Assembly (NCBI GenBank): GCA_963793425.1
Contig: CAWCAG010000007.1
Location: 416,001-480,000 of the forward strand
Direction: 5' to 3'
DNA length: 64,000 nucleotides
Source: an uncultured cyanobacterium
GTDB lineage: Bacteria; Cyanobacteriota; Cyanobacteriia; Cyanobacteriales; CAWCAG01
Position 1 is the stretch's first letter. Each line of letters starts with the position of its first letter. The notes under the pieces were generated by a model. It was not told the origin of the DNA. It did no database searches and saw only the letters and a list, made by a program, of their open reading frames with translations. Made by a program: the position numbers and the translations under genes. Shown here piece by piece: positions 2,357-33,318 of the stretch.

Positions 2357-2400
2357 GGTTTTTCGGTAAGAGGCAGGAAGGGCAAGGGAAAAATCTCTTT

Positions 2401-3066: not shown

Positions 3067-3238
3067 AAACTCTTCTGTGCCAAGAGCGCTCAGTTGACAA
3101 CTGGTGTTTTTCTACTTTACTAAATATATTTGTTATTGATAACTACTGAACAAACTAAGAAAAATAAAAGTTCTCTTATAACTGTTCATGAAAACTGTAG
3201 TGCTATGCCTTTATCCCTAGACATCACTGTTTTAACTT

Positions 3239-3811: not shown

Positions 3812-3912
3812 TTGGGGATTGGGTGATGATCTATAACTGCACAGCTTTGCTGTTGTCGTGGGTATCATTGATAAACTAAAGTTAGGTCTATTAAATAAGG
3901 CAATTTTGAGCT

Positions 3913-4329
3913 ATGGCATCGGAAGCAGAAGTTAAACAGTATCTTGCTCATTGGTTTCAATTGGGTAAGAAAGTAATCCTCAATAACGCCCAAGAGAAGC
4001 TTTTACCAAATCCTGTCATCATTGGCGATCACTACTCCCAGGCTTTTGAAGATTGTTGGCGCAAAATTTTGGCTGCCAATCAAAATGATTCTTACCTAGA
4101 AGGTACTGAAGAAACCATCGCTGATTTGCTATCTTTTGGTTGGGAAATATCCTCTTGTGCTAATTGTGAAATGCCTGTCCCAACTAAAAGCTTAGGGGTT
4201 TCATCTTTACCCTGTCCTTGTCAAGATATCCCCAACTGGCCCAGTACAGAAATTCCCCAACCCAGATTACCAGTCAACAGTCAGAAAAGTTTAAGCGGTA
4301 TTAGCCAGCGCCTGAGTAAAATGAAGTAA
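3913..4329 (+). CDS. Conserved cyanobacterial hypothetical protein with Cys motifs
   Basis: YLAHWFQLGKK N-terminus; CxxC and CPC motifs. Confidence 0.7.
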   Translation: MASEAEVKQYLAHWFQLGKKVILNNAQEKLLPNPVIIGDHYSQAFEDCWRKILAANQNDSYLEGTEETIADLLSFGWEISSCANCEMPVPTKSLGVSSLPCPCQDIPNWPSTEIPQPRLPVNSQKSLSGISQRLSKMK

Positions 4330-4334
4330 CTGAT

Positions 4335-6254
4335 TTAATTATCTACCCAAGGATCAACATCTAAAGGAAGATCCCGATTCGCTTCTGCTACAGAAGCATA
4401 TTGAGGCTTGTCCCACTTGGCTGTAGGAATGGAGGCGATGAGCTTGCGGGTGTATTCCTTTTCTGGGGCGCGGTAAATTTGTTCTGCGGGGGCAATTTCT
4501 TCGATTTGACCTTTGTTCATCACCATGATGCGATCGCTCATGAATTTAACAACGCTTAAGTCATGGGAGATGAAAATATAAGTTAAACGGAATTCTGCTT
4601 GTAGTTCTTTCAATAAGTTCAAGACTTGAGCTTGAATAGAAACATCAAGGGCAGAAACGGATTCGTCACAAATGATAAACTTAGGGTTAAGGGCCAAAGC
4701 CCGGGCGATACAAACCCTTTGGCGTTGTCCTCCAGAAAATTCGTGGGGATAGCGATTAGTCCAAGCGGGGTTTAAACCTACCCTGTCTAATAGGTAAGCG
4801 ACTCTTTCTTGACGCTGACGCTTATTTTGACCCCAATTATGTATAGTCAGGGGTTCTAAAATGGTTTTACCAATATTGCGACGAGGATTCAAGGAGTTAT
4901 AGGGATTTTGAAAAACAATTTGTAGATCACTTCTTAAACGGCGCAAACTTTTTCCTTTTAAATTGGTTATATCTCGCCCTTCAAAAATAATCTGCCCTTG
5001 CATTTCTTTATTTAAACGTAGCAGGGTACGAGCTAAAGTAGATTTGCCGCAACCAGATTCTCCTACTAATCCCAAGGTTTCACCAGGGTAGACAGCAAAA
5101 GAAACTCCGTTAACAGCTATGAAATAGCGTTTTGTTTGCCCTAAAACTCCTTTCAAAGGGAAACCTACATGGAGATTTTTTACTTCTAATAAAGGAGGAG
5201 AGGAAGAAGAAGACGAGTCGGCAATTCCTTGACTACCATTGTTAACTAGCTTCGGTTCAACCGGAAGAGCTGTCGTTTTTTCAATAATGAGCAATTCCCC
5301 GTTGCTATCTTGAGATACATCCATAAAATCGGAGACGGTGGGTAATTGTTCTGCTTGACTATCTAAACTGGGGCGACAAGCCAATAAACCTTTAGTGTAG
5401 GGATGGTTAGGGCGGACAAAAATATTTTCTACTGTTCCTTCTTCCACAATCTTCCCTTGGTACATCACTGCTACATGATCAGCAATTTCAGCGATAACTC
5501 CTAAGTCATGGGTAATGAAAATCATTGACATACCACGGGCGGAACATAATTCTCGCAACAAATCTAGGATAGTTGCTTGTACAGTAACATCTAGGGCGGT
5601 GGTAGGTTCGTCAGCAATTAATAAGGTAGGATTGCAAGCAATAGCCATAGCAATCATCACCCTTTGTAATTGCCCTCCTGAGAGTTCGTGGGGATAGCGT
5701 TTGAGGATAGCCCGTTTGCGTTCGTTAATATACTCATTAATGGCGCGTTCACTATTTGTGGGGCCATATTCTGCCAGATAACTTTCCCGAAACTTTTCGT
5801 CACGGGGAAGTAATTTAACCTCTTGAAGGCTGGCGATCGCTTGTCGTCTTGCTTCAACAGGAGAAACATTTTGATGTAAGAGAATAGCTTCTGTGATTTG
5901 AAAACCGATGTTATATACTGGATTTAGAGAACTCATGGGTTCTTGGAAAATCATCGCTATTTCCTTGCCCCGGTAATTCCTTCTTTGTTCCTCTTTCAAT
6001 GTTTCCAGGTTAACAGCAGGAGTATCTGCCGAGGAAGTAAACCAAATTTCTCCCCCTGCAATAATTCCCGGCTTAGGAACCAAACCCATAACCCCTAAAG
6101 ATGTAACAGATTTACCTGAACCAGATTCTCCGACAATACCTAAAGTTTTTCCCCTAGTTAGCTGAAAATCAATGCCATCTACTGCCGAAACAACTCTACC
6201 TTGACTAATAAATTGAACTTTTAGGTTGCGAACATCTAAAACAGTATCAGTCAT
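4335..6254 (-). CDS. Peptide/nickel-type ABC transporter ATP-binding protein with two fused ATPase domains
   Basis: Two Walker A motifs (GESGSGKS, GESGCGKS), two SGGQ signatures, HPYTKGLL. Confidence 0.93.
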   Translation of the reverse strand: MTDTVLDVRNLKVQFISQGRVVSAVDGIDFQLTRGKTLGIVGESGSGKSVTSLGVMGLVPKPGIIAGGEIWFTSSADTPAVNLETLKEEQRRNYRGKEIAMIFQEPMSSLNPVYNIGFQITEAILLHQNVSPVEARRQAIASLQEVKLLPRDEKFRESYLAEYGPTNSERAINEYINERKRAILKRYPHELSGGQLQRVMIAMAIACNPTLLIADEPTTALDVTVQATILDLLRELCSARGMSMIFITHDLGVIAEIADHVAVMYQGKIVEEGTVENIFVRPNHPYTKGLLACRPSLDSQAEQLPTVSDFMDVSQDSNGELLIIEKTTALPVEPKLVNNGSQGIADSSSSSSPPLLEVKNLHVGFPLKGVLGQTKRYFIAVNGVSFAVYPGETLGLVGESGCGKSTLARTLLRLNKEMQGQIIFEGRDITNLKGKSLRRLRSDLQIVFQNPYNSLNPRRNIGKTILEPLTIHNWGQNKRQRQERVAYLLDRVGLNPAWTNRYPHEFSGGQRQRVCIARALALNPKFIICDESVSALDVSIQAQVLNLLKELQAEFRLTYIFISHDLSVVKFMSDRIMVMNKGQIEEIAPAEQIYRAPEKEYTRKLIASIPTAKWDKPQYASVAEANRDLPLDVDPWVDN

Positions 6255-6321
6255 AGCTTTGGCAGTTAGTAGGTTATTAAGTTTAGTTTAAGAGAAGTAG
6301 CCGATAATTTCGCATTTTCTC

Positions 6322-7227
6322 TTACTTTTGCTGTATTAAAGCAGAACCAACAGGACAAATAATTTTTCCTTCAGTATCGAGGGTATCTAAATCTATAACA
6401 GGGGGAGTAAGGGAAGGTTCGTCTGTCCGACAGATTCCCATGACAATCGCTTCTTCTTCAGTAACAAAAATAGCGCCAGTATAGCTAGGAAGCTCTGCTT
6501 CAGTAGGTGTAGCGGTTATGAAAACTTTTTTAGCCTCATCTGTGGGAGAGTTAATATCATAGCGATAGAACTGACTTTCTAAGGTTGCCACAATACCCAT
6601 TTCTTCCAGGTTGGTGGCAAACTTACCTTTTTCTTTAAAATAACTCTGTTGGGCTAATCCTAAAATATTGATGTATTGTACAGCAATGCTAGGTTGAGTT
6701 GCACTCTCAAACTCTTCTGGGGCAATAAGTTCAATATTTTCCGGTAATTCAATGCGAGTAGAAATCTTCTCAAATAAAAGTGCTTCTGAGGTGAATTTTT
6801 CGGGGCGATTTTCTCCAGGAGAAGTGTTTTCAATGCGTAATTGCTTTTCACCTGCCAACTCAAATATTGTGAAACTTGTATCTTGCTCACTAAAAGAAAT
6901 ATCTAATTGGTAAGGTTTTGTGTTTCCATTAATTCGATAACTGGCTTCAAGAGCAACATTCTTCTCTCCTTCTGCAAAAATCAGGAATAATTTGCCTCTA
7001 GGGGCAAAAATCATGATTAGGGTTTCGTCAGTATCTAAATCTTGAGTTTGCCATTCTCCCAATAATTCTTGTATTACAGCCTTTGTTTCTTTCGCTTCCG
7101 CCTCAGCTTGATTTTGGCGAAAAGGAGGTTGGGCAACAACGGGGGAAATATTACTAATCCCTAATACTAAACAACCCACTAAAGTTAATTTTCGAGATAA
7201 TTCCAGCATTCTTATACTATTGAGCAT
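6322..7227 (-). CDS. Secreted protein with a C-terminal type IV pilin-like G/H (Pilin_GH) domain
   Basis: Signal peptide (VVAQ). C-terminal AQQSYFKEKGKFA...YRYDI...LPSYTGAIF...GICRT...CPVGS is typical of Pilin_GH. Confidence 0.7.
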   Translation of the reverse strand: MLNSIRMLELSRKLTLVGCLVLGISNISPVVAQPPFRQNQAEAEAKETKAVIQELLGEWQTQDLDTDETLIMIFAPRGKLFLIFAEGEKNVALEASYRINGNTKPYQLDISFSEQDTSFTIFELAGEKQLRIENTSPGENRPEKFTSEALLFEKISTRIELPENIELIAPEEFESATQPSIAVQYINILGLAQQSYFKEKGKFATNLEEMGIVATLESQFYRYDINSPTDEAKKVFITATPTEAELPSYTGAIFVTEEEAIVMGICRTDEPSLTPPVIDLDTLDTEGKIICPVGSALIQQK

Positions 7228-7277
7228 TTATTTATTAAATATTAAACATTGGTTATTAATAATTAAGCAATTAGCCA

Positions 7278-7835
7278 TTAATAAATAGCTGTTAGCAATT
7301 TTTCCTCCGTACATACAGCATCTAACTTCCCATCCCAAGGTTCAATTGGTAAGCAAGATACATAAGCAAAATCAAAAACAATTCCTACAGTAGGTTTCAA
7401 TTGCCATTCAACTTGACTGAACATTCGGTCATAGAAACCACCACCATAGCCTAAACGGTAGCCTCGCCTATCACAAGCAACTCCAGGAACCAAGATCAAA
7501 TCCACTTCTGCCGGTTTGAGAACCGGTGAATATGGCTCAGGCTCTTGAATGCCATAAATCCCTTGTATTAACCTTTGTTGAGGCTTCCAGAGATGCCAGG
7601 AAAGAGATTTAGCAACACATCTAGGGAATCCCCATCTTTGTTTGTTGTTGAATAACGAACTCAAATCTGGTTCTTGACGAAAGCTAAAATAAGCCAGAAT
7701 AGTTCTCGCTTGCTTAAACTGAGGCCAAGCTTGGAGATGAACACATAAACTATCACTGTTTTTTCGCCAAACATCTTTAGGCAGCGATCGCCTCTTAGCA
7801 ATTAATTCCCGTCGTAGGACAGCTTTTTCTTTCAT
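7278..7835 (-). CDS. 5-formyltetrahydrofolate cyclo-ligase
   Basis: K..LRR N-terminus; DLILVPGVACDRRGYRLGYGGGFYDR. Confidence 0.95.
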   Translation of the reverse strand: MKEKAVLRRELIAKRRSLPKDVWRKNSDSLCVHLQAWPQFKQARTILAYFSFRQEPDLSSLFNNKQRWGFPRCVAKSLSWHLWKPQQRLIQGIYGIQEPEPYSPVLKPAEVDLILVPGVACDRRGYRLGYGGGFYDRMFSQVEWQLKPTVGIVFDFAYVSCLPIEPWDGKLDAVCTEEKLLTAIY

Positions 7836-8770
7836 TTGCCTTGTTGGTTGGCCAAATTTTCCTGTTCAATTCTCTCCAAAGCCAGCAACTCTTCTCTTCT
7901 CCTTCTTTTTTCTCTCATTTCTTCTCCTACAGTAGCGTTTAACTGATCACCAATCAGCATAATCAAAGCGCTCAAATAAAGCCATAACATCAAAATAATC
8001 ACTGCCCCCACCGCACCATAAATTTTGTTGTAGTTACCAAAATTAGTCACATACAAGCGAAATAAACTAGAAACTCCAGCCCAAGAAAAAGCTGCTAGAA
8101 TCGCGCCGGGAAAAATAGGAGTACCTTTGATCCAACGACTGGGGCCAAAACGATAAATAAAAGCAAAGGCGATCGCTACAATCATTAAACCAAGGGGTTG
8201 GTTCAAATACCCCCAAAAAATTAATAATAAAGAAGCTCCCGTTGTCTTCACCGCTAAGTCGATAATCGTATCGCTAATTAAAACTAGAAAAGAGGCAATT
8301 AGCAACAAAAAAATTGTCCCAACAGTAAGTAAAAGGGAAATAATTTTTGCTTTCCAAAAAGGCCTTCTTTGCTTAGAAGGGACTTGGTGAATCAGATCCA
8401 GAGCATTCATAGCTGCACTTAAAGCACCGGAAGAAATCCAAATAGCAGCAGCAAAACTAACCGAAAACCAACTTCTACCCTTGTCTAATTTAACTCCTTC
8501 AACAAAATCATTGAGCAATTGCCAGACTTGGTAAGGAGCCATGATTTCTAGCTGATTGGTGAGATTATAAAGAGTTGATTGTAAAGACTCTTCAAACATC
8601 CCTAAAGCTGTCAGCATTGCCAAGATTGCCGGAAATAAAGCTAACATTGCACCATAGGCAATTTCAGCAGACAACCCCGTCAAACGCCTTTTGAAGGCGC
8701 GAACAATGGTTTTTCGTAAGGTTGCCCAAGTAAGATGACGAAAAAAGCTGAAGAAACGGGAGACTCCCAT
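7832..8770 (-). CDS. YihY/virulence factor BrkB family membrane protein
   Basis: LSAEIAY..MLALFP, YRFGP, PGA, YNKIYGAVGAVIILMLWLY. Confidence 0.92.
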   Translation of the reverse strand: MGVSRFFSFFRHLTWATLRKTIVRAFKRRLTGLSAEIAYGAMLALFPAILAMLTALGMFEESLQSTLYNLTNQLEIMAPYQVWQLLNDFVEGVKLDKGRSWFSVSFAAAIWISSGALSAAMNALDLIHQVPSKQRRPFWKAKIISLLLTVGTIFLLLIASFLVLISDTIIDLAVKTTGASLLLIFWGYLNQPLGLMIVAIAFAFIYRFGPSRWIKGTPIFPGAILAAFSWAGVSSLFRLYVTNFGNYNKIYGAVGAVIILMLWLYLSALIMLIGDQLNATVGEEMREKRRRREELLALERIEQENLANQQGK

Positions 8771-21534: not shown

Positions 21535-22857
21535 GTGAAAAAAAAATCAAGTAAGCTAGACAAGCTAAAGCTTTACCCTGGGACGATTATGCTAATTACA
21601 ATTAGTATTTTCTCTTTCTCAGCCAAGACTGTTTTAACCCAAGAAGCTATTATAGCCCCCTCCCCCCAAAAAGAAGAGGAAACTAGTTCTTCAGAGCAAG
21701 GACTTTATTTTGCTGATATTGTAGTTAGGGGAAGACCAATCTTTCAAATAGGTAGTCTTGCTGAAGTTAGTGCCGCTGAAAGGGCAGAAATTATTAACAG
21801 ACGTATTGCTAGCGTTTTAGCTCAAAGCGATACAGTAGAGCAAGTTGCTATCAACCCAGATAATCCTCGCAAAATCGCCACTTTGCGGCTTAAAAATCGG
21901 GTCTTAATGACCATAACGGAGCAAGATGCCCAAGATTTTGGTTTAGAGGTGGAAGAATTAGCCCAAAAGTGGGCTGACAGCCTTGACGAAGCTATTGATA
22001 AACAACCTTTAGCCATAGATGTAGGGCAACGTCTTTATGGGACAGTGCAACAATTAGCACGGGATGCTATTGCCAACCTTCCTGCTTTGCTTGGTGCATT
22101 CATTGTTCTAATTATCACTTGGATATTTGCTAAACTGGTACGCTATCTGGCTTTTACCTGGGCGCAAAAAACAGAAGGCGATCGCAGTACAGAAATACTT
22201 ATTGGTCGTCTTGGTTATGGTGGTGTTTGGGTTTTAGGAGCGGTGGTAGCATTGGGAGTCTTAGGTTTAGATTTTGGTGCTTTATTAGGGGCGTTGGGGT
22301 TAACTAGCGTTGCTATTGGTTTTAGTCTCAAAGATGTTTTAAGCAACTATATTTCTGGGGTTATTTTACTAGCTGCTCGTCCTTTTGCTATCAATGACCA
22401 AGTGGTAATTGAAGATTATGAAGGTACGATTACCCAAATTCAACTCCGGGCTACTACCATGAAAACCTATGACGGGCGGTTAGTTTATATTCCTAACCAA
22501 GAAGTTTTTCAAGCTAGTATTATTAACAACACCGCTTCTCCTCGCCGTCGTAGTTCAGTTATGGTAGGCATTGATTATGGGGAAAATATTGCCCAGGCAA
22601 AAGAAGTGATTGGTCGAGTTTTAGAAAGAATGGTTGAAGTGGAAACTTCTCCTGCCCCGGATGTTTTGGTACAAGAATTAGCAGCAAGTACCGTAAACTT
22701 AGAAGTCCGTTTTTGGGTGGATTCCCGTCGTTCAGGATTTTTGGCTACGACATCAGAGGTAGCCCAAGCTATTAAAGAGGCTTTAGAAAAAGCAGATATT
22801 GATATGCCCACAGATATTTATACTTTGCTGTTTCGAGATATTCCTAACTTTGCCTGA
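21535..22857 (+). CDS. MscS-family mechanosensitive channel with a periplasmic N-terminal domain
   Basis: GALGLTSVAIGFSLKDVLSNYISG, RPF..ND, YIPN, VGIDY. Confidence 0.92.
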   Translation: MKKKSSKLDKLKLYPGTIMLITISIFSFSAKTVLTQEAIIAPSPQKEEETSSSEQGLYFADIVVRGRPIFQIGSLAEVSAAERAEIINRRIASVLAQSDTVEQVAINPDNPRKIATLRLKNRVLMTITEQDAQDFGLEVEELAQKWADSLDEAIDKQPLAIDVGQRLYGTVQQLARDAIANLPALLGAFIVLIITWIFAKLVRYLAFTWAQKTEGDRSTEILIGRLGYGGVWVLGAVVALGVLGLDFGALLGALGLTSVAIGFSLKDVLSNYISGVILLAARPFAINDQVVIEDYEGTITQIQLRATTMKTYDGRLVYIPNQEVFQASIINNTASPRRRSSVMVGIDYGENIAQAKEVIGRVLERMVEVETSPAPDVLVQELAASTVNLEVRFWVDSRRSGFLATTSEVAQAIKEALEKADIDMPTDIYTLLFRDIPNFA

Positions 22858-23231
22858 AGGAGTGGGGCAGATTAAGGAAGTTAAGGAAGAATAATTATTT
22901 TTATTAATTGAGTTGCTTTATGAAGATATTGTTTTCAGGATTCAAATTAACTATGTTCGAGAGGATAATAAATTTTGCAGTAGCTTAGATGACTGTTCAG
23001 GTTACAGGATTTTTTAAACACGGCATGGAAAGCTTAGTGAGGGTATAAAGCTGGTCAGTTTTTCTTTTTGATTCCTTTCCCACAAGTGATATTTCCATTT
23101 TTACTTTACATCATATGAATGACATATTCCCTTTTTCATGCAATAATTCAGCTAGTATTTTACTGCTTCTTTCAGTAAAGTTAACTTAGGGTAATTTTCC
23201 TAAATGATGTTCCTCCGTATTTTGATGAGAA

Positions 23232-23714
23232 ATGGTGATTTTGCGCCGGGTATTTACTTCTGTAGCCAGTTTCCTGAGTATTTTGGCAATTAAACCTGAA
23301 GTTTTAGCCCAAACTGTTAATATTCCTTTTAGCGCCAATGTAGCCAATCAGGTTACCTTAGACATTGTCGAACCTGGAGTTGCAAGCCCTTCGGCAGTTG
23401 TGACCTCAGATGGATTGCAAACCTCTTTCCAATCCACAAACCCTGCAAGGATTTCAATTCAGGCTAACGAGGGTGCAAGCATTATCATTTCTGAACCATT
23501 CTTAACTTCTGGCCCTAATCCAGACCCTCCGGGGACGGAAAGGATTGGTGTGCTTCGGTTTGATAATGTGGAAGTAAGAAGCAACGTAGGTGCAGGTGTT
23601 GCACCTCTTCCTTCAGGAGAAACAGAGTTAGAAGTTGAACTTTATGTAGAAAGACCAGAACCCTTTCCAGCAGGAACTTATAACTACGTAGTTAATTTAA
23701 CTATCACACCTTAA
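23232..23714 (+). CDS. Chaperone-usher-type pilin-like subunit 1 (Cys-less)
   Basis: Signal peptide (VLAQ), N-terminal TVNIPFSANV strand, C-terminal FPAGTYNYVVNLTITP; paralog of the next two genes. Confidence 0.7.
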   Translation: MVILRRVFTSVASFLSILAIKPEVLAQTVNIPFSANVANQVTLDIVEPGVASPSAVVTSDGLQTSFQSTNPARISIQANEGASIIISEPFLTSGPNPDPPGTERIGVLRFDNVEVRSNVGAGVAPLPSGETELEVELYVERPEPFPAGTYNYVVNLTITP

Positions 23715-23774
23715 ATTGTTAATTAGAGCTGGAAAACGTTTGTAAACTAATTTTACCATCAGGAGATTTGAATA

Positions 23775-24251
23775 ATGATTCGTAATTCTTTACTTGCTGC
23801 AACCTTATCAATAGCTGGCACTACGGCCCTTGTTACTCAAGCAACGGCTCAAAGTATTGATGTTCCTTTCACTGGAGTAGTACAAGGAAGGTGTAGCTTC
23901 AATAATTTAATACCTGGAGTTATGGTATCTGATTTTCCAGGCCCCGGTAGCAATAAATTAGATACTCGCGCCCCTGGTGGTAGTTCCGGTGCAGTTACTG
24001 TTGTTTGTAACCAACCAGCAGACCTAATAGTGGGATCTCCTATACAAACCGCAGGACCAGGTACTGCAGGTTTTGTTGAGGTAGATGTTCAATCTTCTAA
24101 TGGTGGTGGTTCATCCCCTGGACTTGGAGGTCAGTCTCTATTTTTACCACCTGGTCAAAGTCAACTCTCTGTGGATATGCGCGTTGATAGTCCCGCCCCA
24201 CTTCCTGCTGGCAATTATGGATACAATGTTTCTTTAACTGTAGTGCCATAA
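23775..24251 (+). CDS. Chaperone-usher-type pilin-like subunit 2
   Basis: Signal peptide (ATAQ), SIDVPFTGVV..C, second Cys in VTVVCN, C-terminal LPAGNYGYNVSLTVVP; AGGAG RBS. Confidence 0.75.
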   Translation: MIRNSLLAATLSIAGTTALVTQATAQSIDVPFTGVVQGRCSFNNLIPGVMVSDFPGPGSNKLDTRAPGGSSGAVTVVCNQPADLIVGSPIQTAGPGTAGFVEVDVQSSNGGGSSPGLGGQSLFLPPGQSQLSVDMRVDSPAPLPAGNYGYNVSLTVVP

Positions 24252-24383
24252 CGTTAGTGTTGCTGGAAAGTAATGATTTATGCAGAGTGATACAATTAGC
24301 AAATATTTTCTTACTGTCGTCAAAAATTAGAGATTTCATTACAAATCAGCAACGCACATATTTTCAACCAGGATATTTTAATA

Positions 24384-24842
24384 ATGATTCACAACTCTCT
24401 AATTGCTGCAACCTTAGCGTTGGCAGGTACTACAACTATTACTGCCCAAGCAATGGCTCAAAGTATTGATGTTCCTTTCACTGGAGTCGTACGAGGAACT
24501 TGCAGTTTCAATAATTTAGTACCTGGGGTCATGGTATCTTCAGGTTCTAATATTTTAGATACCAAAGCCCCTGGGGGTAGCTCTGGTGCAGTCACCGTCA
24601 TTTGCAATCAACCAGCAGACTTACTAGTTAGTGATGCTGTACAAACAGCAGGGCCATCCTTTGTTGCTGGCAAGATTATGGCAGAAGCAGCCTCTTCTAA
24701 TGGTGGTACTACTAACGGAAGCCAATCTCTTTTCTTGCAACCTGGCCAAAGCCAAGTTTCTGTAGATATTTGGATTGATAGCCCTGCCCCGCTTCCCTCT
24801 GGCAATTATGGGTACAATGTTTCTTTAACTGTAGTGCCTTAG
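24384..24842 (+). CDS. Chaperone-usher-type pilin-like subunit 3
   Basis: Close paralog of subunit 2 with the same Cys pair and C-terminal GNYGYNVSLTVVP. Confidence 0.75.
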   Translation: MIHNSLIAATLALAGTTTITAQAMAQSIDVPFTGVVRGTCSFNNLVPGVMVSSGSNILDTKAPGGSSGAVTVICNQPADLLVSDAVQTAGPSFVAGKIMAEAASSNGGTTNGSQSLFLQPGQSQVSVDIWIDSPAPLPSGNYGYNVSLTVVP

Positions 24843-24852
24843 TATTTATTGA

Positions 24853-24878
24853 TAGGAGTGAGGAACTCCTTGCTCCTA
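24853..24878 (+). terminator. Intercistronic stem-loop after the pilin genes
   Basis: TAGGAGTGAGG-aact-CCTTGCTCCTA, 11-bp stem with two G-U pairs and no strong U tail. Confidence 0.45.
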
Positions 24879-25165
24879 CAAACTACAATCAAACTATATT
24901 TATATGAGTTTTAATAATTGGTGCAACGCCCTAGTTTTACCAGTGAGTAGCTGCTTGGTTGCCACTGTCTTACTGGGGAATTTGCCAGCAAAAGCGCAAG
25001 TTAGTCTTTCTCCTCTGATTATCGAACAAAGCGCAGAACGAGGTCAATCCCAGAGTGTAATTACTATTAATAATACCAGCGATCAACCCTTTCGGGCTAG
25101 GGTTTATGCTGAACCTTTTACCTACAGTCGGGATGATGGTTTCCAAGTTTTAGAAACTACCCCTA

Positions 25166-26381
25166 GTAGTCTGTCAATTATGAATATGTGGATAAAGACT
25201 CTTGAGGCGGATACGGGCATCTTCGGTGCTAAATTGCCAATCCACCGATTTTTGCAATCGATTGCGCTCCACACACCAAGCTTGAGTTTCACTCTTTAAT
25301 ATTTCGCGCTCTCCAATCCGTCTATCCAAGCATTGTCTAGTTAATGCAGATAACTCAATCTCGGCAATATTCAGCCAACTTCCATGCTTGGGTGTATGGT
25401 GAATCTCTAGCTTTTCTACTAAACGACGGGCTGTTGGTGCTTCAAAGGCTTTGTAGAGAGAAGCTTGGTTGTGAGTGTTTAACTGGTCGCACACAAGAGT
25501 TACTGTTTCACTTTCGGGGTAGTCTTCATCGAGCAAGCATTGTATTTGTTTTGCCCAATCTACCGCAGTTCTTTGCTCTGTAACTATAACTTTGCGCCAG
25601 CCTGAAAGAGGCTCTGTAAAGATGAAAATGTTGGCAGTTCCATTACGTTCATATTCGTAATCGAATGATTCTGGACATCCTGGTTGGGCTGGTAGCGCAG
25701 TTCGAGTTTCTTTGATAAGTTGCACCGGTTGTTCGTCCATACATATCATGGGATGTTTAGGGTCGTAGGGTCGGTGATAAACTTCCAGTACATCTTCCAT
25801 GTGGGCCACAAATTCAGCATTTGCTTTGGGTGGAATTACATATTGCCTACGCAGATGCGGCTTTAACTGGTTTTTTTCAGCTCTTGTCTTACTGTTTCAT
25901 AGCTAATCTCTGGCACAATCTCTAGCTCTACTAGTTTGTCTGCCAGGAGTCTTAATGTCCAACGTGCTTGTCCCTTTGGTGGCTCTCCACACCTTAAGGC
26001 TATCAGCTTTGCCTGTGCTTCTCCGTCACATATTCTTGGTCGCGATGGACTTTTGGGTTTCTTTCTCTCCAATGCTCTTTCTATACCTTCTTCAACTAGT
26101 CTTTGTCGCAGATTCGCTACTGTGTTTCGGTGACAACCAAACGCTTTAGCTGCTTCGATGTCTGTCCATCCTTGTCCATTTATATCTATGTTTAGCAGTA
26201 TATTCGCGTGTTTGATTTTGTAGGCTGCTGCTTTTCCCTTCGATACTAATTCTTGGAGTTGTTGTCTTTCTTCTTGTTTTAATCTCACTATGTAACGTTT
26301 CTGCATTTTTCCTTTGAGCTTCCAGTAGACTTCCTTTTCTATTCTCTCATATTGTTCACAAAATTGATTATGACAGACTAC
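25166..26381 (-). mobile_element. IS630-family insertion sequence (1216 bp)
   Basis: Terminal inverted repeats GTAGTCTGTCA (25166-25176) and TGACAGACTAC (26371-26381). Duplicated TA at 25164-65 and 26382-83, within a CTAG target. Confidence 0.93.
25174..26306 (-). CDS. IS630 transposase, two ORFs joined by a -1 frameshift
   Basis: HTH ORF 26306-25863 (RWTLRLLA, ISYETVR) and DDE ORF (CMDE, CDQLNTH, SWLNIAEIE). An A7C slippery site at ~25870-25877 gives LKKNQLKPHLRRQYVIPP. Confidence 0.9.
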
Positions 26382-26949
26382 TAGTGATTTAACTCCCTAC
26401 TTACAATTTTCTCCCCGTGAACTTAACGTGGAACCAGGGCAAGCCCGTAAAGTACGTATCATCACACGCTTTCCTCCCAGTTTACCTACCGGGGAATATC
26501 GGGCAGTAATTTTTACAGAAAACTTACGGGAAACAATAGATGATAGCGGCAACAACGTTACTATTGAAACCCGCATTGGTACAACTATTTATGTGAGGCA
26601 AGGTAATGTTTCTCCTCAGCTTGAAGCAGTTGCAGCTAGCTGGGACAAAGAACAACAGCAATTGCAAATCTTGATCAATAACTCTGGAGATGCTTCTGCC
26701 CGTACTGGTGTTAACTGGACTTTGCAGCAAGGGGAAAAGATGATTGCTGAAGGAATTTTACTTCCGGTGGGAATTGTGGCCACTAGTGAACGCAATTTAT
26801 CATTATCTAGTGAAACAGATAAGCAACTTCAACTAACTTCTGGTACATATCAGTTAACTGGTGACTTGCTTTGGGGGAATCAAGAAAATCCTGAGAGTAA
26901 GTCTTTTAGTTTAGATTTAATAGTACCCTAGTGGGGAAAATAGGGAGAT

Positions 26950-29580
26950 TTGAGCGAGAAACAAAAAATCAAACTGATTACTTATTGCTTATTGCTTATT
27001 ACTTCTTCAGTCTCTGTTTTGCGTGTAGCAAATGCTCAAACTTTGCCTAGTGATGATGTTACCCCAGTAGTGAATGGAGAACAACAGGAATTTGTAATTA
27101 TCCCTGTAGGCATTAATCTCGGTAAACGCAACGTGCTTCCTAGTGCCTTGATAAGGGGCTTAGAAGATGGTACTCAAGCTATTAATTTTGCGAATTGGTT
27201 AATTCCTTTTGATACCGTTGTCGAAAGTTTGCGCCTCGATATTACTTCTCTCGAAGATGGACAATTGGAAGTGCGATCGCCGGGTTTGGTTACTCGAATT
27301 AATCCTGATGAGTTGCAAACTGACCCTGAATTGGGTTTAGTTCTTTCTGTAGAAGAGATAATTACCCTTTTAAATGTACCAACTAAGTTTGATCTTAATG
27401 AGTATGCCATCGCCTTCAATCCTCCCTGGTTAAATGCAAGGGGTCAAGCTAAGTCTCCAGGGAAGTTGCCTGTGATTTTATCAGGATTACCACTGTTGGA
27501 GGCAGAAAGTTTTACTTTCACTAATTTAGGGCAGAGGGTTAATCTTACCAACAATGATGATGGTGGGATTAATTCTCAAGGAGAGTTGACTGCCTTGGGG
27601 ACTGTGGCGGGGAGTAGTTGGTTTGTGAAGCTTAACCAAAGTGATTTAAGGGATGGCCGGAGTTGGCGTATTGGTGAGGTACAACTTTTGCGGCAAACTC
27701 CCACAGCAGATTATGTGTTGGGTTCACAACCGACTTTTTGGCGTAGTCAGGAAGGAGGGGAATATTGGGGACTAACAACTATTCAACGTTGGGGGTTCAC
27801 GCCTGCGGTAGCTTTCAAGGGCGGAGGATTTAGCCCTAGCCAACGGTTGCAAGCAACTCAAGTAGGGCGTACTATTGTAGGAGAGGCGGAACCAGGAACT
27901 TTGGTACAGTTAACCACTGGGTTCGCAACTAGTGTGGTGGCAGAAGTGCTGGTAGATTCTTCTGGGGTTTATCGCTTTGAAGATATACCAGCTAAAAGGG
28001 CTACCTATCGGATCTTGCTTTTTGCCAATGGGCAGTTAACCGATGAACCAGAAATTCAGGAAGCAAATTTTTCTACCTTACCGACTCAATTACCCGCAGG
28101 GGCATCGGCTTTAACGGTTTCTGGGGGAGGAAGACGGGAATTTAGGGGAGAAAATGAGCTGTGGGGCAGTTTTACAGATTGGCGTGGTGGTGTTGCCTAT
28201 CGTCGCGGGATGACAGAAGATTTAACTTTGGGTTTAGGTTTAGTTTATGATCACCAATGGTTAGGGTTAGGGGAATTCTTTTATCAACCCCAGAAACTAC
28301 CTTTACAAGCAACAGTGTCGGCTTTAGTTGATGTCGAAGAAGGAGATGGCGACATTAATGCTAACTTGCGTTTCCAACCAAGTAGGAATTTCAGCTTAAA
28401 TCTCGATAGCGATCGCCTCTCCAATCGTTTCAACCTCAACTGGCAAATCTTTCCTGGTTTAACTTTAACTGGCAATGGCAATAGTCGTGATGCCACTTTA
28501 GCCGGAGGATTAAGAGTTGCCCATAGCAGTCGCTACTTTTCTCTTTTTGCCACCGCCAGTCTGGATATAGACAATAATTTGCGTTGGAGTTTGAACCAAA
28601 GACTGGGCAATTTGCGTTTAACGCACCAAGGTAATGAAATCACCAATATTTCCGAACTCACCTACGGGCTATCAGGGACTAATTCTTTACTTTCAGGACA
28701 TAGTTTGTTTATAGGTTATGATAGTCGCAACCTCAACCAGATTAACAACAACCTTCTCTCTCTTGGTTGGCGCTATCGTTCTACTTCTCTTACCGTAGAA
28801 GGGAGAAATCTTTGGGAATTTGACTTGGGCTATGGTTGGAGTAATGAAGGTAGGGGGATTATTGCTTCTGTGGGGGCGGCTTTACCAGGATTATCTTTAA
28901 GGTTGCGTTACCAAGAAGTTTCTGTTAGCGATAATTCCCCCAGTTTTCGTATTGAGTTGCTACCTAGTTTTAACCTCCAAAGAGGAGAAGTATTACCTGG
29001 AGAACAAGATTTTGAACGACTACGAAGTCAGGGAGGATTATGGATTCAACCTTTTTTTGATCGTAACAACAATGGTATTAGGGATGGGGGAGAGAAACTC
29101 TATTTAGAAGCACCGGAATTATTATTGATCCTTAATAATCAATCCCTTCAATTTTGGCGTAATGCTGTGTATGCCCACGGCATTTTTGTTTTTTTGCCCC
29201 CTGGTATCTATCGTCTTGATTTAGATGTAGCCGGGTTTCCTTTAGATTGGCAAGGGGCAGCCAAAGCTTATGCTACAGAGGTGATAAGTGGTAGTTATAC
29301 CCCGGTGTTAGTTCCTCTACATCTTGCCTATACTGTGACAGGAGTAGTGACGGATCTTGCTGGTAATACTGTGGGTGGTGCTAGGATTGAAGCTATTCCC
29401 CAAGCTGGGGGGCAAAGGATTTTTTCGATTACTAATGATGCAGGAGTTTTTTATTTAGAAGGTTTGCCACAAGGTAAGTATGATTTACTTATCAATGAAC
29501 AACCAGCCCAGCCTGGGTTTCTAGAGTTTGAGGAAAAATCAGAACCTTTTCAAGAGTTGAACTTGATTAATAGCAATTGA
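26950..29580 (+). CDS. Usher-like outer-membrane protein with carboxypeptidase-regulatory-like Ig domains
   Basis: Signal peptide; many amphipathic beta strands with aromatic ends; YRRGMTEDLTLG usher-like motif; internal GEAEPGTLV..DSSGVYRF Ig domain; C-terminal FFDRNNNG.RD and VTGVVTD..G..TNDAGVFYLEGL domains. Follows the chaperone. Confidence 0.7.
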   Translation: MSEKQKIKLITYCLLLITSSVSVLRVANAQTLPSDDVTPVVNGEQQEFVIIPVGINLGKRNVLPSALIRGLEDGTQAINFANWLIPFDTVVESLRLDITSLEDGQLEVRSPGLVTRINPDELQTDPELGLVLSVEEIITLLNVPTKFDLNEYAIAFNPPWLNARGQAKSPGKLPVILSGLPLLEAESFTFTNLGQRVNLTNNDDGGINSQGELTALGTVAGSSWFVKLNQSDLRDGRSWRIGEVQLLRQTPTADYVLGSQPTFWRSQEGGEYWGLTTIQRWGFTPAVAFKGGGFSPSQRLQATQVGRTIVGEAEPGTLVQLTTGFATSVVAEVLVDSSGVYRFEDIPAKRATYRILLFANGQLTDEPEIQEANFSTLPTQLPAGASALTVSGGGRREFRGENELWGSFTDWRGGVAYRRGMTEDLTLGLGLVYDHQWLGLGEFFYQPQKLPLQATVSALVDVEEGDGDINANLRFQPSRNFSLNLDSDRLSNRFNLNWQIFPGLTLTGNGNSRDATLAGGLRVAHSSRYFSLFATASLDIDNNLRWSLNQRLGNLRLTHQGNEITNISELTYGLSGTNSLLSGHSLFIGYDSRNLNQINNNLLSLGWRYRSTSLTVEGRNLWEFDLGYGWSNEGRGIIASVGAALPGLSLRLRYQEVSVSDNSPSFRIELLPSFNLQRGEVLPGEQDFERLRSQGGLWIQPFFDRNNNGIRDGGEKLYLEAPELLLILNNQSLQFWRNAVYAHGIFVFLPPGIYRLDLDVAGFPLDWQGAAKAYATEVISGSYTPVLVPLHLAYTVTGVVTDLAGNTVGGARIEAIPQAGGQRIFSITNDAGVFYLEGLPQGKYDLLINEQPAQPGFLEFEEKSEPFQELNLINSN

Positions 29581-29597
29581 GCAATGAGTTGAAAGTC

Positions 29598-29627
29598 TTG
29601 CCTTTCTCTTCCTTAAAGTGATATTAT
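29598..29627 (+). promoter_or_regulatory. Putative sigma70-type promoter of metH
   Basis: TTGCCT-18 nt-TATTAT with an extended -10 TG. Confidence 0.45.
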
Positions 29628-29795
29628 GTATATGGTAGAACAGGTGCGCTCTTAAAAGCCGTTCTCCAAAGTATTTTTGCTCTTCTTTCGGTAACTCCTC
29701 TTGTAGCGTCTCTATAAAGAGAAAGCTAAACTAATAATTGGTAAACTTTAGCCTACTGTAACTATCAGCCTGTTCCCCAAATCAAAGAAACATCA

Positions 29796-32700
29796 ATGAA
29801 AAGTGCATTCCTCAACCACCTTAATAGCCCCAAACTGCCGGTAATTGTCTTTGATGGGGCGATGGGAACTTCCCTACAAACCCAAAACCTCACCGCAGCA
29901 GATTTTGGTGGGGCGGAATATGAAGGTTGCAATGAGTATTTGGTGCATACGAAACCCGAAGCAGTGAAAAAGGTGCATCGCGGTTTCTTGGAGGTGGGTA
30001 CAGATGTAATTGAAACGGATACCTTTGGTGCTACTTCTGTGGTTTTGGCAGAGTATGACTTAGGTGACCAAGCTTATTACTTGAATAAACGGGCAGCAGA
30101 ATTAGCAAAGGAAGTAGCCACAGAATACTCAACCCCAGAAAAACCTCGCTTTGTGGCCGGTTCTATAGGACCAGGGACTAAATTACCCACCTTGGGACAT
30201 ATTGATTTTGATACCCTCAAAGATGCTTATGTAGAACAGGTTGAGGGGTTATATGATGGCGGGGTTGATTTGTTGTTGGTGGAGACTTGTCAGGATGTGT
30301 TGCAAATTAAAGCTGCTTTAAATGCTATTGAAGAAGTGTTCGTTAAAAAAAAGGAACGCTTACCTATTATGGTTTCTATCACAATGGAACAGAAGGGGAC
30401 AATGTTAGTTGGTTCAGAAATTAGTGCCGCATTAGCTATTCTTGAACCCTATAAGATTAATATTCTCGGTCTAAATTGTGCAACGGGACCGGATTTAATG
30501 AAGGAACATATTAAATATTTATCGGAACATTCTCCTTTTGTTGTTTCCTGCATTCCCAATGCTGGTTTGCCAGAAAATGTTGGAGGGGAAGCACATTATC
30601 GCTTAACACCAATGGAATTGCGTATGTCTTTGATGCACTTTGTCGAAGATTTGGGAGTGCAAATTATTGGTGGTTGTTGTGGCACTCGTCCAGATCATAT
30701 CCAACAATTGGCAGAAGTGGCTAAGGAGTTAACCCCAAAAGTAAGGCAGCCCCAATATGAATCTGCAGCAGCTTCTATTTATAGTACCCAAACGTTACCA
30801 ACAGGAAAACTCTTTCTTAATTGTGGGGGAAAGATTAAATGCCAGTGGTTCAAAGAAATGTCGCACTCTTTTAAATAATGAAGACTGGGACGGTTTAATT
30901 TCTTTGGCAAAGTCTCAAGTTAAGGAAGGGGCGCAAATTCTGGATGTGAACGTTGATTATGTGGGTAGGGATGGGGTGCAGGATATGCACGAGTTGGTAT
31001 CCCGTTTGGTTAACAATGTTAATTTGCCTCTGATGTTGGATTCTACGGAATGGGAGAAAATGGAAGCGGGGTTAAAGGTTGCTGGGGGTAAATGTATCCT
31101 CAACTCCACCAACTATGAAGACGGGGAAGAGAGGTTTTATCAGGTTTTAGAATTAGGGAAAAAGTACGGTGCAGGTATTGTAGTGGGAACCATTGATGAA
31201 GAGGGAATGGGGCGTACTGCTGATAAGAAGTTTGCTATTGCTAAACGTGCTTATAATGCTGCCATAGAGTATGGCATTCCCCCCCAAGAAATCTTTTTTG
31301 ATCCTTTAGCTTTACCGGCTTCTACGGGTATTGAAGAAGATCGAGAAAATGCTAAAGCAACGGTGGAAGCAATTAAACGTATTAGGGAAGAGTTGCCCGG
31401 TTGCCATATAATTTTGGGAGTTTCTAATGTTTCTTTTGGTTTGAATCCTGCTGCTCGTCAGGTATTGAATTCTGTGTTTTTGCATGAAGCTATGGCGGTG
31501 GGTTTAGATGCAGCTATTGTTAGTGCGAGTAAGATTTTACCTCTAGCGAAAATTGAAGCAGAACATCAACAAATTTCTCAAGATTTAATCAGTGATCGCC
31601 GTCAGTTTGAGGGGGATATTTGTACCTATGATCCCTTAATGAAATTAACAGAATTATTCCAAGGCAAAACCACGAAACGCGAACAAAAGGTAGATGAGAA
31701 TTTACCAGTGGAAGAGAGGTTAAAAAATCATATTATTGATGGGGAAAGAATTGGTTTAGAAGAACAATTGGAAAAAGCCTTAACTCAGTATCCTCCTTTG
31801 CAGATCATTAATACTTTCCTGCTTGATGGCATGAAAGTTGTAGGAGAATTATTTGGTTCGGGGCAAATGCAATTACCTTTTGTACTTCAATCTGCCCAAA
31901 CTATGAAAGCAGCGGTGGCATATTTAGAAACCTATATGGACAAGGATGAAAGTAGTAGTAATGCTAAAGGGACAGTGGTTATTGCTACGGTGAAAGGAGA
32001 TGTTCACGATATTGGTAAAAACCTGGTTGATATTATCCTTTCTAACAATGGTTATAAGGTGGTTAATTTAGGGATTAAACAACCTGTGGATAATATTATT
32101 CAGGCATATGAAGAACATCAGGCTGATTGTATTGCTATGAGTGGTTTGTTGGTTAAGTCCACAGCGTTTATGAAAGATAACTTAGCCACTTTTAACGAAA
32201 AAGGTATTAATGTCCCGGTTATTTTAGGGGGTGCAGCTTTAACCCCTAAATTTGTTTATGGAGACTGTCAGGACACTTATCAAGGGAAGGTTATTTACGG
32301 AAAAGATGCTTTTGCTGATTTACACTTTATGGAAAAATTAATGCCTGCTAAAGCTGCTAATAACTGGCATGATTTACAAGGCTTTTTAGATGAAGTAACC
32401 GAAGAAAGTAAGGCAGTAAGTAATGGTAAAGCTAAAGTTAAAAAAGAAAAGCTTAAAGTTGAACCCCAACCCATAGATACCCGTCGTTCTGAAGCTGTAA
32501 CCTTAGATTTAGAACGTCCTCAGCCACCATTTTGGGGTACAAAAATATTAACCCCGGAAGATATTCCTTTAGAAGAATTATTTTGGTATTTAGACTTACA
32601 AGCTTTAATCGCCGGGCAATGGCAATTCCGCAAACCTCGTAACCAATCCAGGGAAGAATACGATACTTTCTTAGCTGAGAAAGTTTACCCAATATTATCT

Positions 32701-33318
32701 AAATGGAAAGAAAAAGTATTAGCTGAAAATCTCTTACATCCTACAGTAGTTTATGGTTACTTCCCTTGCCAAGCCGAAGGTAATTCTCTTTATCTTTATG
32801 ACACCAAAAATCAAGATAAACAAGTAGCCAAGTTTGACTTTCCTCGGCAAAAATCGGGCCGTCGTCTTTGCATTGCTGACTTCTTCGCCTCCAAAGAATC
32901 TGGCATTATGGATGTATTCCCCATGCAAGCCGTCACTGTCGGGGAGATTGCCACAGAATACGCCAAAAAACTCTTTGTTGCTGATGACTACACCAACTAC
33001 CTTTATTATCATGGTTTAGCAGTTCAAGTAGCAGAAGCCCTAGCAGAATGGACTCACGCCCGTATTCGCCTTGAGTTGGGCTACGCAGATCAAGAACCCG
33101 ATAACGTGCGAGATGTCCTCGCCCAACGTCATCAAGGTTCCCGTTTCAGCTTCGGTTATCCTGCTTGTCCTAATATTCCCGATCAATACAAACAAATAGA
33201 GTTGCTGGGTTGCGATCGCATTAATTTATATATGGATGAAAGCGAACAATTATACCCAGAACAATCTACAACCGCTTTTATTACTTATCATCCCGTTTCC
33301 AAGTATTTTAGTGCTTAA
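29796..33318 (+). CDS. metH: Cobalamin-dependent methionine synthase (apparent +1 frameshift at ~30790)
   Basis: FDGAMGT, GLNC, GGCCG (Hcy domain); GERLNASGS (pterin domain); DVHDIGKN (cobalamin); [10 protein letters not shown]. Removing one A from CAAACGT joins the two ORFs as [13 protein letters not shown]. Confidence 0.93.

Follow-up and report, generated by a model that had tools for sequence, protein, structure and literature searches.

A cyanobacterial gene cluster that very probably encodes a divergent chaperone–usher system unseen by standard domain models

A chaperone–usher-like gene cluster in an uncultured cyanobacterium

We analyzed 64,000 nucleotides of contig CAWCAG010000007.1 from an uncultured cyanobacterium (the whole stretch is referred to as the window) and find that a gene cluster at 23232..29580 very probably encodes a chaperone–usher (CU) secretion and assembly system of a deep, so far unnamed clade that lies nearest the archaic (SCPU/Csu/CccSP-type) systems. 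The cluster comprises three pilin-like subunits, a periplasmic chaperone and an 876-residue usher, all on the forward strand; an earlier inspection of the letters alone (the sequence-only reading) had proposed a divergent CU operon here, and the features, coordinates and common orientation that it gave are those of the open reading frame (ORF) list of the window. Profile–profile comparison, fold search and a modeled complex mark each of the three component types as remotely homologous to a CU part, which supports that proposal; these homologies are joined by a conserved gene order and by a confident chaperone–pilin model with the expected strand geometry.

Curated domain models see little of this. 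No window protein reaches the gathering threshold of PF00577 (Usher), PF00345 (PapD_N), PF05229 (SCPU) or PF00419 (Fimbrial), and the window's whole genome (98.6% complete) is without any PF00577 or PF00345 match. The pilins and the chaperone halves (see below) match no Pfam or NCBIfam family up to E 1, and four intact homologs of the chaperone gave no PapD_N match even when the cutoff was raised to E 10. Curated-model matches of the 876-residue protein are CarboxypepD_reg (PF13620; E 1.3e-13, residues 795-848) and weak Big_6/SdrD_B matches at residues 300-356. The public names of the family follow suit: the usher is called "carboxypeptidase regulatory-like domain-containing protein," because its last C-terminal domain is CarboxypepD_reg-like, or hypothetical, and the pilins are "hypothetical protein" with no Pfam domain (17 matches, from a word index of limited reach). 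The chaperone is named "P pilus assembly chaperone PapD" in four of eight JGI records and in Atlas cluster names.

The 876-residue protein has the sequence profile and predicted fold of an usher

The usher gene (26950..29580, + strand, TTG start) was assigned from hhalign, Foldseek and VIA comparisons. Clusters of the same order that are positive for PF00577, PF00345 or SCPU supplied three reference sets. An alignment of 25 ushers of the new family matches 11 PF00577-positive cyanobacterial ushers with an hhalign probability of 97.3% (E 1.7e-11, 728 columns), and this match begins at profile column 70 and spans the protein from the N-terminal domain to the C-terminus. The C-terminal region also shows weak similarity to the ends of canonical ushers of cyanobacteria (E 9.2e-4 for G019; also G027, G056 and G079). 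A sequence profile search of the PDB with the usher returned only irrelevant matches, at E 1.6 or weaker.

The AlphaFold2 model of the usher (mean pLDDT 69.8, pTM 0.56) reproduces the usher layout in its domain order, i.e., an N-terminal domain, a barrel with a sandwich inserted after strand 6, and C-terminal domains. The predicted N-terminal periplasmic domain (residues 49-156, 27094..27417), delimited from the model and the hhalign match, is mixed alpha/beta. The predicted translocation barrel (27511..28974) has six strands at residues 188-281 and about 20 at 386-675, and a beta-sandwich (residues ~300-372, 27847..28065; six-stranded at 308-371) follows the sixth barrel strand. By its place in the strand order of the model, this sandwich occupies the usher plug position; it aligns to the corresponding block of canonical ushers in the hhalign comparison and contains the most conserved peptide of the usher family, VDSSG[IV]YRF. 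The C-terminal periplasmic domains (residues 746-869, 29185..29556) are modeled as sandwiches, the last of them CarboxypepD_reg-like.

When the model was searched against the PDB with Foldseek, ranks 1-18 were all FimD or PapC (E 2.6e-22 to 2e-9), and the matches below rank 18 were unrelated proteins at E 7.6e-7 or weaker. VIA gave a Z of 15.8 to the PapC pore (339 residues aligned, rmsd 4.4), 15.1 to the FimD pore (352 aligned) and 14.3 to full-length FimD (514 aligned, covering model residues 184-875); residues 190-677 align to the FimD and PapC translocation domains. The identification of the 876-residue protein as an usher in the sequence-only reading thus agrees with both its top structural matches and its full-length profile match to Pfam-positive ushers.

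Chaperone homology and a modeled chaperone–pilin complex

The chaperone family matches with an hhalign probability of 99.5% to nine PapD_N-positive cyanobacterial chaperones (E 2.2e-23, 203 columns) and 97.4% to three chaperones of SCPU-type clusters from another class (E 1.1e-11). The two reference sets match each other at E 3.8e-21, and the new chaperones are therefore about as far from the references as the references are from each other. The single PDB sequence match of the chaperone profile is EcpB, at E 0.031 over the F1-G1 region. On this sequence and model evidence, the protein appears to be a PapD-like periplasmic chaperone of two Ig-like domains.

Because the chaperone gene of the window is broken, we modeled the ortholog pair of a related locus (L062), with an own alignment for each chain and the signal peptides removed. 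The chaperone–pilin complex scores an ipSAE of 0.86 (0.87, 0.86 and 0.86 in separate runs), compared with 0.02 for the best of three controls; in the benchmark for this score, 116 of 157 solved complexes attain the 0.86 mark, as do 2 of 215 mismatched pairs. At least 90% of contacts agree between runs, partner pLDDT is at least 86, and the chaperone has a pLDDT of 88. Chaperone residues 150-156, which sit in the strand after a conserved E-Y-R-A-V block, i.e., the G1 position, pair in register and parallel with pilin residues 158-163, the C-terminal strand of the pilin. The first chaperone strand (residues 33-40) lies against pilin residues 37-41, and pilin residues 26-36 are outside the chaperone interface. 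The modeled geometry corresponds to donor-strand complementation in which the N-terminal extension stays free.

The pilin-like subunits share motifs that recur across the family

The three subunits are encoded on the + strand at 23232..23714 (A type, 160 residues, without Cys), 23775..24251 (B type, 158 residues, with a Cys pair) and 24384..24842 (C type, 152 residues, with a Cys pair and 73% identical to the B-type paralog). The Cys pair reported earlier for two of the three paralogs is indeed there, and so are the N-terminal SIDVPFTGVV and TVNIPFSANV segments and the C-terminal G-x-Y-x-Y-x-V-x-L-T segment. Each protein of the cluster carries a hydrophobic N-terminal leader ending A-x-A|Q, which was judged by eye and in the chaperone and pilin alignments rather than with a signal-peptide predictor. 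In the A-type pilin, the leader ends LAQ|T, the N-terminal segment is TVNIPFSANV and the C-terminal strand reads GTYNYVVNLTITP.

These features recur in the related loci described below. The C-terminal G-x-Y/F-x-Y/F-x-V-x-L-T type motif is present in 101 of 111 pilin-like ORFs; an N-terminal alternating V-x-F-x-G-x-V type motif is found in 80 of 114 ORFs by a loose pattern and 62 by a strict one, and the segment [ST]-[VA]-[DN]-[VI]-x-F-x-[GA]-x-[VI], with the first Cys a few residues later, in 97 of 114. Cys is absent from 27 of 30 relatives of the A type, and 69 of 81 members of the B/C type contain exactly two. Given such counts, the pilin motifs of the sequence-only reading are family traits rather than chance. 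The N-termini of E. coli FimA (VHFKGEV...C), FimG (ITVNGKV...C), FimI and FimF have the same layout, and in the Fim proteins these segments are the donor strands.

The pilins match 12 pilin ORFs of Pfam-positive cyanobacterial clusters with an hhalign probability of 97.8% (E 1.1e-12); with the signal peptides cut from both alignments, the same comparison gives 90.3% (E 1.5e-6, 122 columns). The match to four SCPU pilins of another class is 46% and covers the last 28 columns only, and the only PDB matches of the pilin profile are to Caf1, at E ~0.08 on the C-terminal strand. In the AlphaFold2 model of the B-type pilin (mean pLDDT 85.9), residues 26-39 lie outside any strand. Foldseek places CU pilins (Caf1, Fim, Pap, Csu and CS20) in 15 of the first 18 rows for this model, with a best E of 2.2e-3; archaeal donor-strand fibers and many CU pilin domains top the VIA list, in which the best Z is 7.6 and no Z of 8 or more occurs.

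A minority of the family departs from this pattern in that 17 of the 114 pilin-like ORFs (142-152 residues) are entirely without the N-terminal donor-strand-like segment. These occur in loci L019, L020, L026, L027, L028, L032, L033, L034, L038, L049, L052, L060, L063, L066, L067, L068 and L069, at most one per cluster and beside segment-bearing pilins where the flanking DNA suffices; the window has none. A subunit that accepts but does not donate a strand is what the tip of a fiber would need.

Place among chaperone–usher clades and known systems

The archaic (sigma) CU systems, to which Csu of Acinetobacter and CupE of Pseudomonas belong, have the same three part types as the cluster, and those with SCPU pilins in cyanobacteria include CccS (slr1667), CccP (slr1668) and Slr0019 of Synechocystis and the systems of Nodularia and Thermosynechococcus. 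Of the CU groups compared, they alone are matched by the new profiles, at E 1.7e-11 for the usher, 2.2e-23 for the chaperone and 1.5e-6 to 1.1e-12 for the pilin. The cluster also has its genes in the order small pilins, chaperone, usher, which we take to be the order of csu and cupE, and pilins of both groups share a C-terminal G-x-Y-x-x-x-V-x-V/L-T strand and a Cys pair. Unlike the archaic systems, the cluster is undetected by the Pfam SCPU, PapD_N and Usher models, and its usher ends in a CarboxypepD_reg-like domain. Archaic systems encode a two-domain tip adhesin of the CsuE or CupE6 type after the usher; neither the window nor the related loci have such a gene in that position. The cluster-type usher is moreover the commoner of the two in the sampled order, with 31 strong matches against 15 for the Pfam-positive type among 151 genomes.

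With the classical CU systems (FimA/C/D, PapA/D/C; Caf1/Caf1M) the cluster shares the usher fold and domain order, FimD and PapC being the best structural matches, as well as the fold class of the pilins and the N-terminal V-x-F-x-G-x-V ... Cys layout of FimA, FimG, FimI and FimF. The modeled chaperone G1 strand runs parallel to the pilin F strand, a geometry known for PapD-type complexes. Unlike them, the cluster has neither a PF00419 fimbrial domain nor a lectin-domain adhesin, and it has no hhalign relationship to FimD, FimC, FimA or FimG (probabilities 1-11%). Links to the alternative CU class (EcpA/EcpB; CFA/I class) are confined to EcpB, the sole and marginal PDB match of the chaperone profile (E 0.031), and to CfaE, CfaB and CS pilins among the VIA fold matches of the pilin.

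Pfam-positive cyanobacterial ushers match FimD at E 9.2e-10, and SCPU-type ushers of another class match it at E 2.3e-27; given that the new ushers match the archaic ones at E 1.7e-11 and the archaic ones match FimD at 9.2e-10, these two distances are comparable. Among 101 sampled genomes of the class of a genome labeled Candidatus Parabeggiatoa (see below), six have PF00577, and the Pfam-matched pilin-sized ORFs that neighbor them are all SCPU; because these sampled pilins matched only SCPU, E. coli K-12 Fim proteins are the sole classical comparators.

We then placed 43 ushers (25 new, 11 cyanobacterial Pfam-positive, six SCPU-type from another class, and FimD) in a quick maximum-likelihood tree. 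A branch of length 3.56 (SH-aLRT 100) separates all 25 new ushers from the others, in a tree that is unrooted, has long branches and holds one classical usher. In this quick unrooted tree, the new ushers form one branch apart from FimD and the SCPU-type ushers and do not group with the SCPU-associated (archaic/sigma) ushers. Taken with the profile comparisons, we read the family as a deep clade nearest the archaic (sigma) group and not a member of it in the Pfam sense.

In the published accounts considered here, CU systems of cyanobacteria are defined by exactly the domains that the cluster lacks, i.e., SCPU, PapD_N and Usher: this holds for Synechocystis (PMC4390875; 10.1101/130278), where the CccS, CccP, Slr0019-type system is Pfam-positive for all three (PMC4390875), for Nodularia (PMC5853447, PMC3610870) and for Thermosynechococcus (PMC7005997). 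The cluster is Pfam-negative for these defining domains and is therefore not a CccS/CccP/Slr0019-type system; its separateness from that type, implied by the sequence-only reading, is further seen in a window genome without any PF00577 or PF00345 match. The CT pilus of Microcystis (pilin, pilin-like protein, and glycosyl- and methyltransferases; PMC12397347), is likewise not of the cluster's type.

Gene order and distribution

The family is large. At least 317 relatives of the 876-residue protein are found among 8,000 candidates scored, the best 120 of which are 47-83% identical, and nearly all named relatives are cyanobacterial. With one genome taken per species, 234 of 294 candidate stretches encode an usher relative, and the best 80 of these were retrieved with their flanks. 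Records titled Calothrix sp. PCC 7103, Fischerella sp. PCC 9431, Cylindrospermum sp. NIES-4074 and Scytonema hofmanni UTEX 2349 are among the sources of related loci. At least 3 kb upstream of the usher is available in 63 of the 80 loci; a chaperone is present there in 57 of the 63 and a chaperone with at least one pilin, as detected with the window's proteins, in 52. The pilin–chaperone–usher order, with the three kinds of gene together in one orientation, thus recurs from the window in 52 of the 63 informative loci. Upstream pilin counts range from 0 to 4 per locus, and the related loci yielded 111 pilin-like ORFs.

No conserved gene was found downstream of the usher in the related loci, where the 3′ genes are unrelated housekeeping and other genes, frequently on the opposite strand; they include gyrA and genes for FBPase, a desaturase and TPS-CHAT proteins. 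In five Coleofasciculus loci (L012-L015 and L018), and these only, a co-oriented ORF of ~1,490 residues with a two-partner-secretion (TPS) domain and a C-terminal CHAT domain follows the usher after ~200-400 bp. Two Rivularia loci (L019 and L020) hold two diverged copies of the whole cluster that adjoin with their ushers tail to tail, with more pilin and chaperone genes on both sides.

In a sample of 151 genomes from the order, 37 match the usher profile at E <=0.001, 31 of them strongly (E < 1e-50); the weak matches are mostly matches of the C-terminal domain to canonical ushers. In the same 151 genomes, PF00577 matches 15 and PF00345 matches 11. These counts suggest a CU type that is common in cyanobacteria yet unrecognized by standard domain models, with strong matches to the usher of a Pfam-invisible family in roughly double the number of sampled genomes of the order that the Pfam Usher model matches. 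Work on cyanobacterial surface appendages centers on type IV pili. In three published studies, CU systems in cyanobacteria are counted only via the Pfam SCPU, PapD_N and Usher domains (PMC4390875, PMC5853447, PMC7005997), and full-text literature searches, with most subscription journals outside their reach, found no publication that describes the family. Recognizing it would change the adhesion and aggregation inventory of filamentous and mat-forming cyanobacteria, give the chaperone–usher tree a further deep branch and name concrete knock-out genes in culturable strains with an intact cluster.

Some matched genomes hold irregular copies. Usher matches with internal stops occur in G018, G064, G087 and G097. 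In six genomes of genus g35 (G035, G064, G087, G107, G125 and G142), the usher-like frames are ~450-500 residues long and cover profile columns ~376-691, the later part of the barrel; some of these short frames carry internal stops, and they may be truncated variants or decaying copies.

Closer to the window, the distribution is patchy. Four of the 30 nearest-relative genomes match the usher profile; neither G001, a genome of the same genus that is 97% complete, nor G002, of the same family, is among them. In G001, the genes that flank the cluster are present at 88-90% DNA identity on different contigs, and there is no DNA match to the cluster itself. These data bear on the claim, made from two HIP1 sites in the usher gene, of a long residence in cyanobacteria. 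The sites, at 27273 and 28409, are real; the window contains 30 HIP1 sites in 64 kb against 0.23 expected, and the density of the cluster (two in 6.3 kb) is close to that average. For the family the claim stands, since the homologs are nearly all cyanobacterial and the HIP1 density is near the window average, and by these sequence comparisons the family appears to be old in the phylum. For this particular lineage it is not established. The same-genus relative is without the cluster, and the closest named homologs are only 55-57% identical; either loss in relatives or transfer within the phylum may account for the history here.

The family probably also occurs outside cyanobacteria, or was transferred there, to judge from its sequence relatives. 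A locus labeled Candidatus Parabeggiatoa (L075) has a pilin–chaperone–usher–pilin cluster at 1370-8623 with an usher 43% identical to that of the window. Its 10.6-kb contig has no HIP1 site, compared with 6 and 18 sites in two cyanobacterial loci of 16.6 kb each, and because of this absence it is probably truly non-cyanobacterial. A further usher homolog, P0067, is named Candidatus Sericytochromatia.

A recent IS630 insertion splits the chaperone gene

In the assembly, the chaperone gene is interrupted between codons 87 and 88 by an insertion sequence (IS) of 1,216 bp on the − strand (25166..26381), the extent of which is set by 14-nt terminal inverted repeats and the flanking TA, duplicated at 25164-65 and 26382-83. 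The element contains a transposase in two ORFs, a DDE part (25174-25809, −) and an HTH part (25863-26306, −), which match NF033545 at E 7e-35 and 1.1e-20 as well as DDE_3 and HTH_32 in Pfam and NCBIfam scans. The IS630 family is marked by a DDE transposase that carries an HTH at its N-terminus, by short terminal inverted repeats and by duplication of a TA target.

The N-terminal fragment of the chaperone gene (24904..25165, +) holds codons 1-87 and the first base of codon 88 and ends at the TA target. Beyond the element, the frame resumes at 26383 in the C-terminal fragment (26382..26931, +; 182 codons), which holds the predicted G1 donor strand and the second Ig-like domain. The ORF list shows the split as an N-terminal ORF that starts at 24904 and reads into foreign sequence and a further ORF at 26428-26931. 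In an alignment with 33 intact homologs, the two halves (...FQVLETTP and SDLTPYLQFSPRE...) abut without loss or overlap, so that precise excision of the IS would restore a chaperone gene of 269 codons. The description of the operon as self-contained therefore holds in that all component genes are present and fails in that the chaperone is disrupted in the assembly.

The comparisons indicate that the insertion is both recent and polymorphic. A second copy of the IS at G000:C2 in the same genome is 100% identical, which argues for a recent insertion. The cluster stretch is also found in four public metagenome runs of one study (X1-X4), three of which may be the source of the sequenced DNA, and the runs are for that reason not independent; no RNA run is listed among the public runs. 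A 2,053-nt contig of X1 covers 24458-25162 and continues at 26381-27728, skipping 1,218 bases, at a depth of 14.4 that is similar to that of the flanking contigs. X2 and X3 contain the same IS-free joint with a shorter side of only 25 letters, and in X4 a loose contig end at 25167 reads into post-IS sequence. These contigs, which show the uninterrupted allele and give no allele frequency, indicate that an intact-chaperone allele exists as DNA in the sampled population and that the insertion is polymorphic.

Two further observations concern this region. The X4 contigs (depths low, 2-8) represent a slightly different strain, in which AAA is inserted in frame into the chaperone gene behind 26734 and substitutions are scattered over 16 single-base sites between 23037 and 28176. 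The same-genus genome G001 has two related IS630 copies that are 85-87% identical (G001:C6:205515-206714 and G001:C2:146936-148082).

A proposed mechanism and the weight of the evidence

If the cluster works as its homologs do, Sec would carry the three pilins across the inner membrane into the periplasm, where each would adopt an Ig-like fold without the last strand, with the groove filled by the G1 strand of the two-domain chaperone, parallel to the C-terminal F strand. The 876-residue usher, with its N-terminal domain, plug-position sandwich in the barrel and C-terminal domains, would take up the chaperone–pilin complexes; the free, conserved N-terminal S-V-D-V-x-F-x-G-x-V segment of the next pilin would then replace the chaperone strand in donor-strand exchange and thread a fiber of subunits to the cell surface. 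We infer exchange, fiber formation and surface location by analogy, and the biological role, on the same grounds, is probably adhesion or aggregation. Because the recent IS630 insertion knocks out the chaperone, cells with the IS allele should fail to assemble the structure. A bolder extension, which we offer tentatively and consider rather doubtful as a whole, is that the family represents a fourth major CU lineage, essentially cyanobacterial and commoner there than the archaic one, that it builds unobserved thin fibers of single-domain pilins with, in the many clusters that encode one, a donor-strand-less pilin as the tip instead of a two-domain adhesin, and that natural populations switch the fiber on and off by IS insertion into, and loss from, the chaperone gene.

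A number of results weigh against a CU assignment. No Pfam or NCBIfam chaperone–usher model reaches even E 1 on any component, and direct hhalign comparison of the new usher with E. coli FimD and of the new chaperone with E. coli FimC detects no relationship (probabilities of 1.2% and 1.8%). Confidence in the usher model is middling (pLDDT falls below 50 at residues 695-748), and DSSP counts about 26 strands in the barrel region rather than 24. Generic 18-stranded porins score a VIA Z of 12-13 against it, though with ~255 residues aligned; given this modest margin, the usher case is carried by the profile match, the ranking in Foldseek and the length of the alignment. The pilin has no Foldseek match at E <=0.001, and its best VIA Z of 7.6 is in the range that the tool calls common. 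The score of the complex model may reflect memory of solved CU complexes and belongs to an ortholog pair, not the window's own proteins, so that this model shows likeness rather than binding. Finally, the cluster has no two-domain adhesin, and its chaperone gene is disrupted in this assembly.

The best-surviving alternative, which we nonetheless hold to be unlikely, is that the cluster is a decaying relic in this genome, inactivated by the IS, lost in close relatives and unused. The split chaperone gene fits a relic, and so do the lack of an usher match in G001 (97% complete) and G002, the 88-90% identical G001 flanks without cluster DNA and the internal stops in the usher matches of G018, G064, G087 and G097. 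All other cluster genes are intact ORFs, however, and the insertion is recent, with an IS copy 100% identical to its second copy; within the one metagenome study, an IS-free allele is assembled in X1, has short-sided support in X2 and X3 and is hinted at by the loose end in X4.

Marginally less probable still is a CU machine with an amorphous or sheet-like product (a capsule, sheath or coat), on the model of the Caf1 capsule or the Myxococcus spore coat. The only PDB sequence matches of the pilin profile are to Caf1, a capsule-forming subunit, there is no gene for a two-domain tip adhesin, and non-fimbrial products are known among published CU-like systems (PMC7005997, PMC3610870). Sequences do not tell fiber morphologies apart. 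Caf1-type systems usually have a single subunit, and multiple pilin paralogs in this gene order resemble archaic pilus operons. The sequence-only reading had noted that no two-domain adhesin is recognizable, and this is upheld: the window has none, methionine synthase coming after the usher, and nothing is conserved 3′ of the usher in related loci.

We give little credence to a third possibility, in which the chaperone and usher export small proteins that modify other appendages such as type IV pili. This is prompted by a proposal, made in an unreviewed preprint, that type IV pili of Synechocystis are reshaped by minor pilins and an adhesin secreted through its CU system (10.1101/130278), yet that proposal concerns a different, Pfam-positive family. 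The conserved, free N-terminal donor-strand-like segment of the pilins fits self-polymerization, and the window has no type IV pilus genes next to the cluster.

That the cluster is not a CU system at all and instead pairs a generic porin-like barrel with unrelated periplasmic Ig-fold proteins is very improbable: no curated domain model recognizes the parts, porins reach a VIA Z of 12-13 against the barrel and Ig-like folds are common, but three independent profile–profile matches pair each component with its CU counterpart (full length for the usher), the top-ranked folds are specifically those of ushers, the order of the three genes is conserved and the chaperone–pilin model has donor-strand geometry.

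Other features of the locus

A promoter and terminator scan of 22800-29900 returned 14 and 6 sites against 13.4 and 7.2 in shuffles, i.e., no excess, and a putative site at 23119-23147 is thus a lead only. Downstream of the usher, the methionine synthase gene metH appears as two overlapping ORFs (29796-30878, 360 residues, and 30757-33318, 853 residues), either because of a frameshift or an assembly error or because the gene is split; in the same-genus genome, the metH span 29797-33317 is matched at 90% in one piece.

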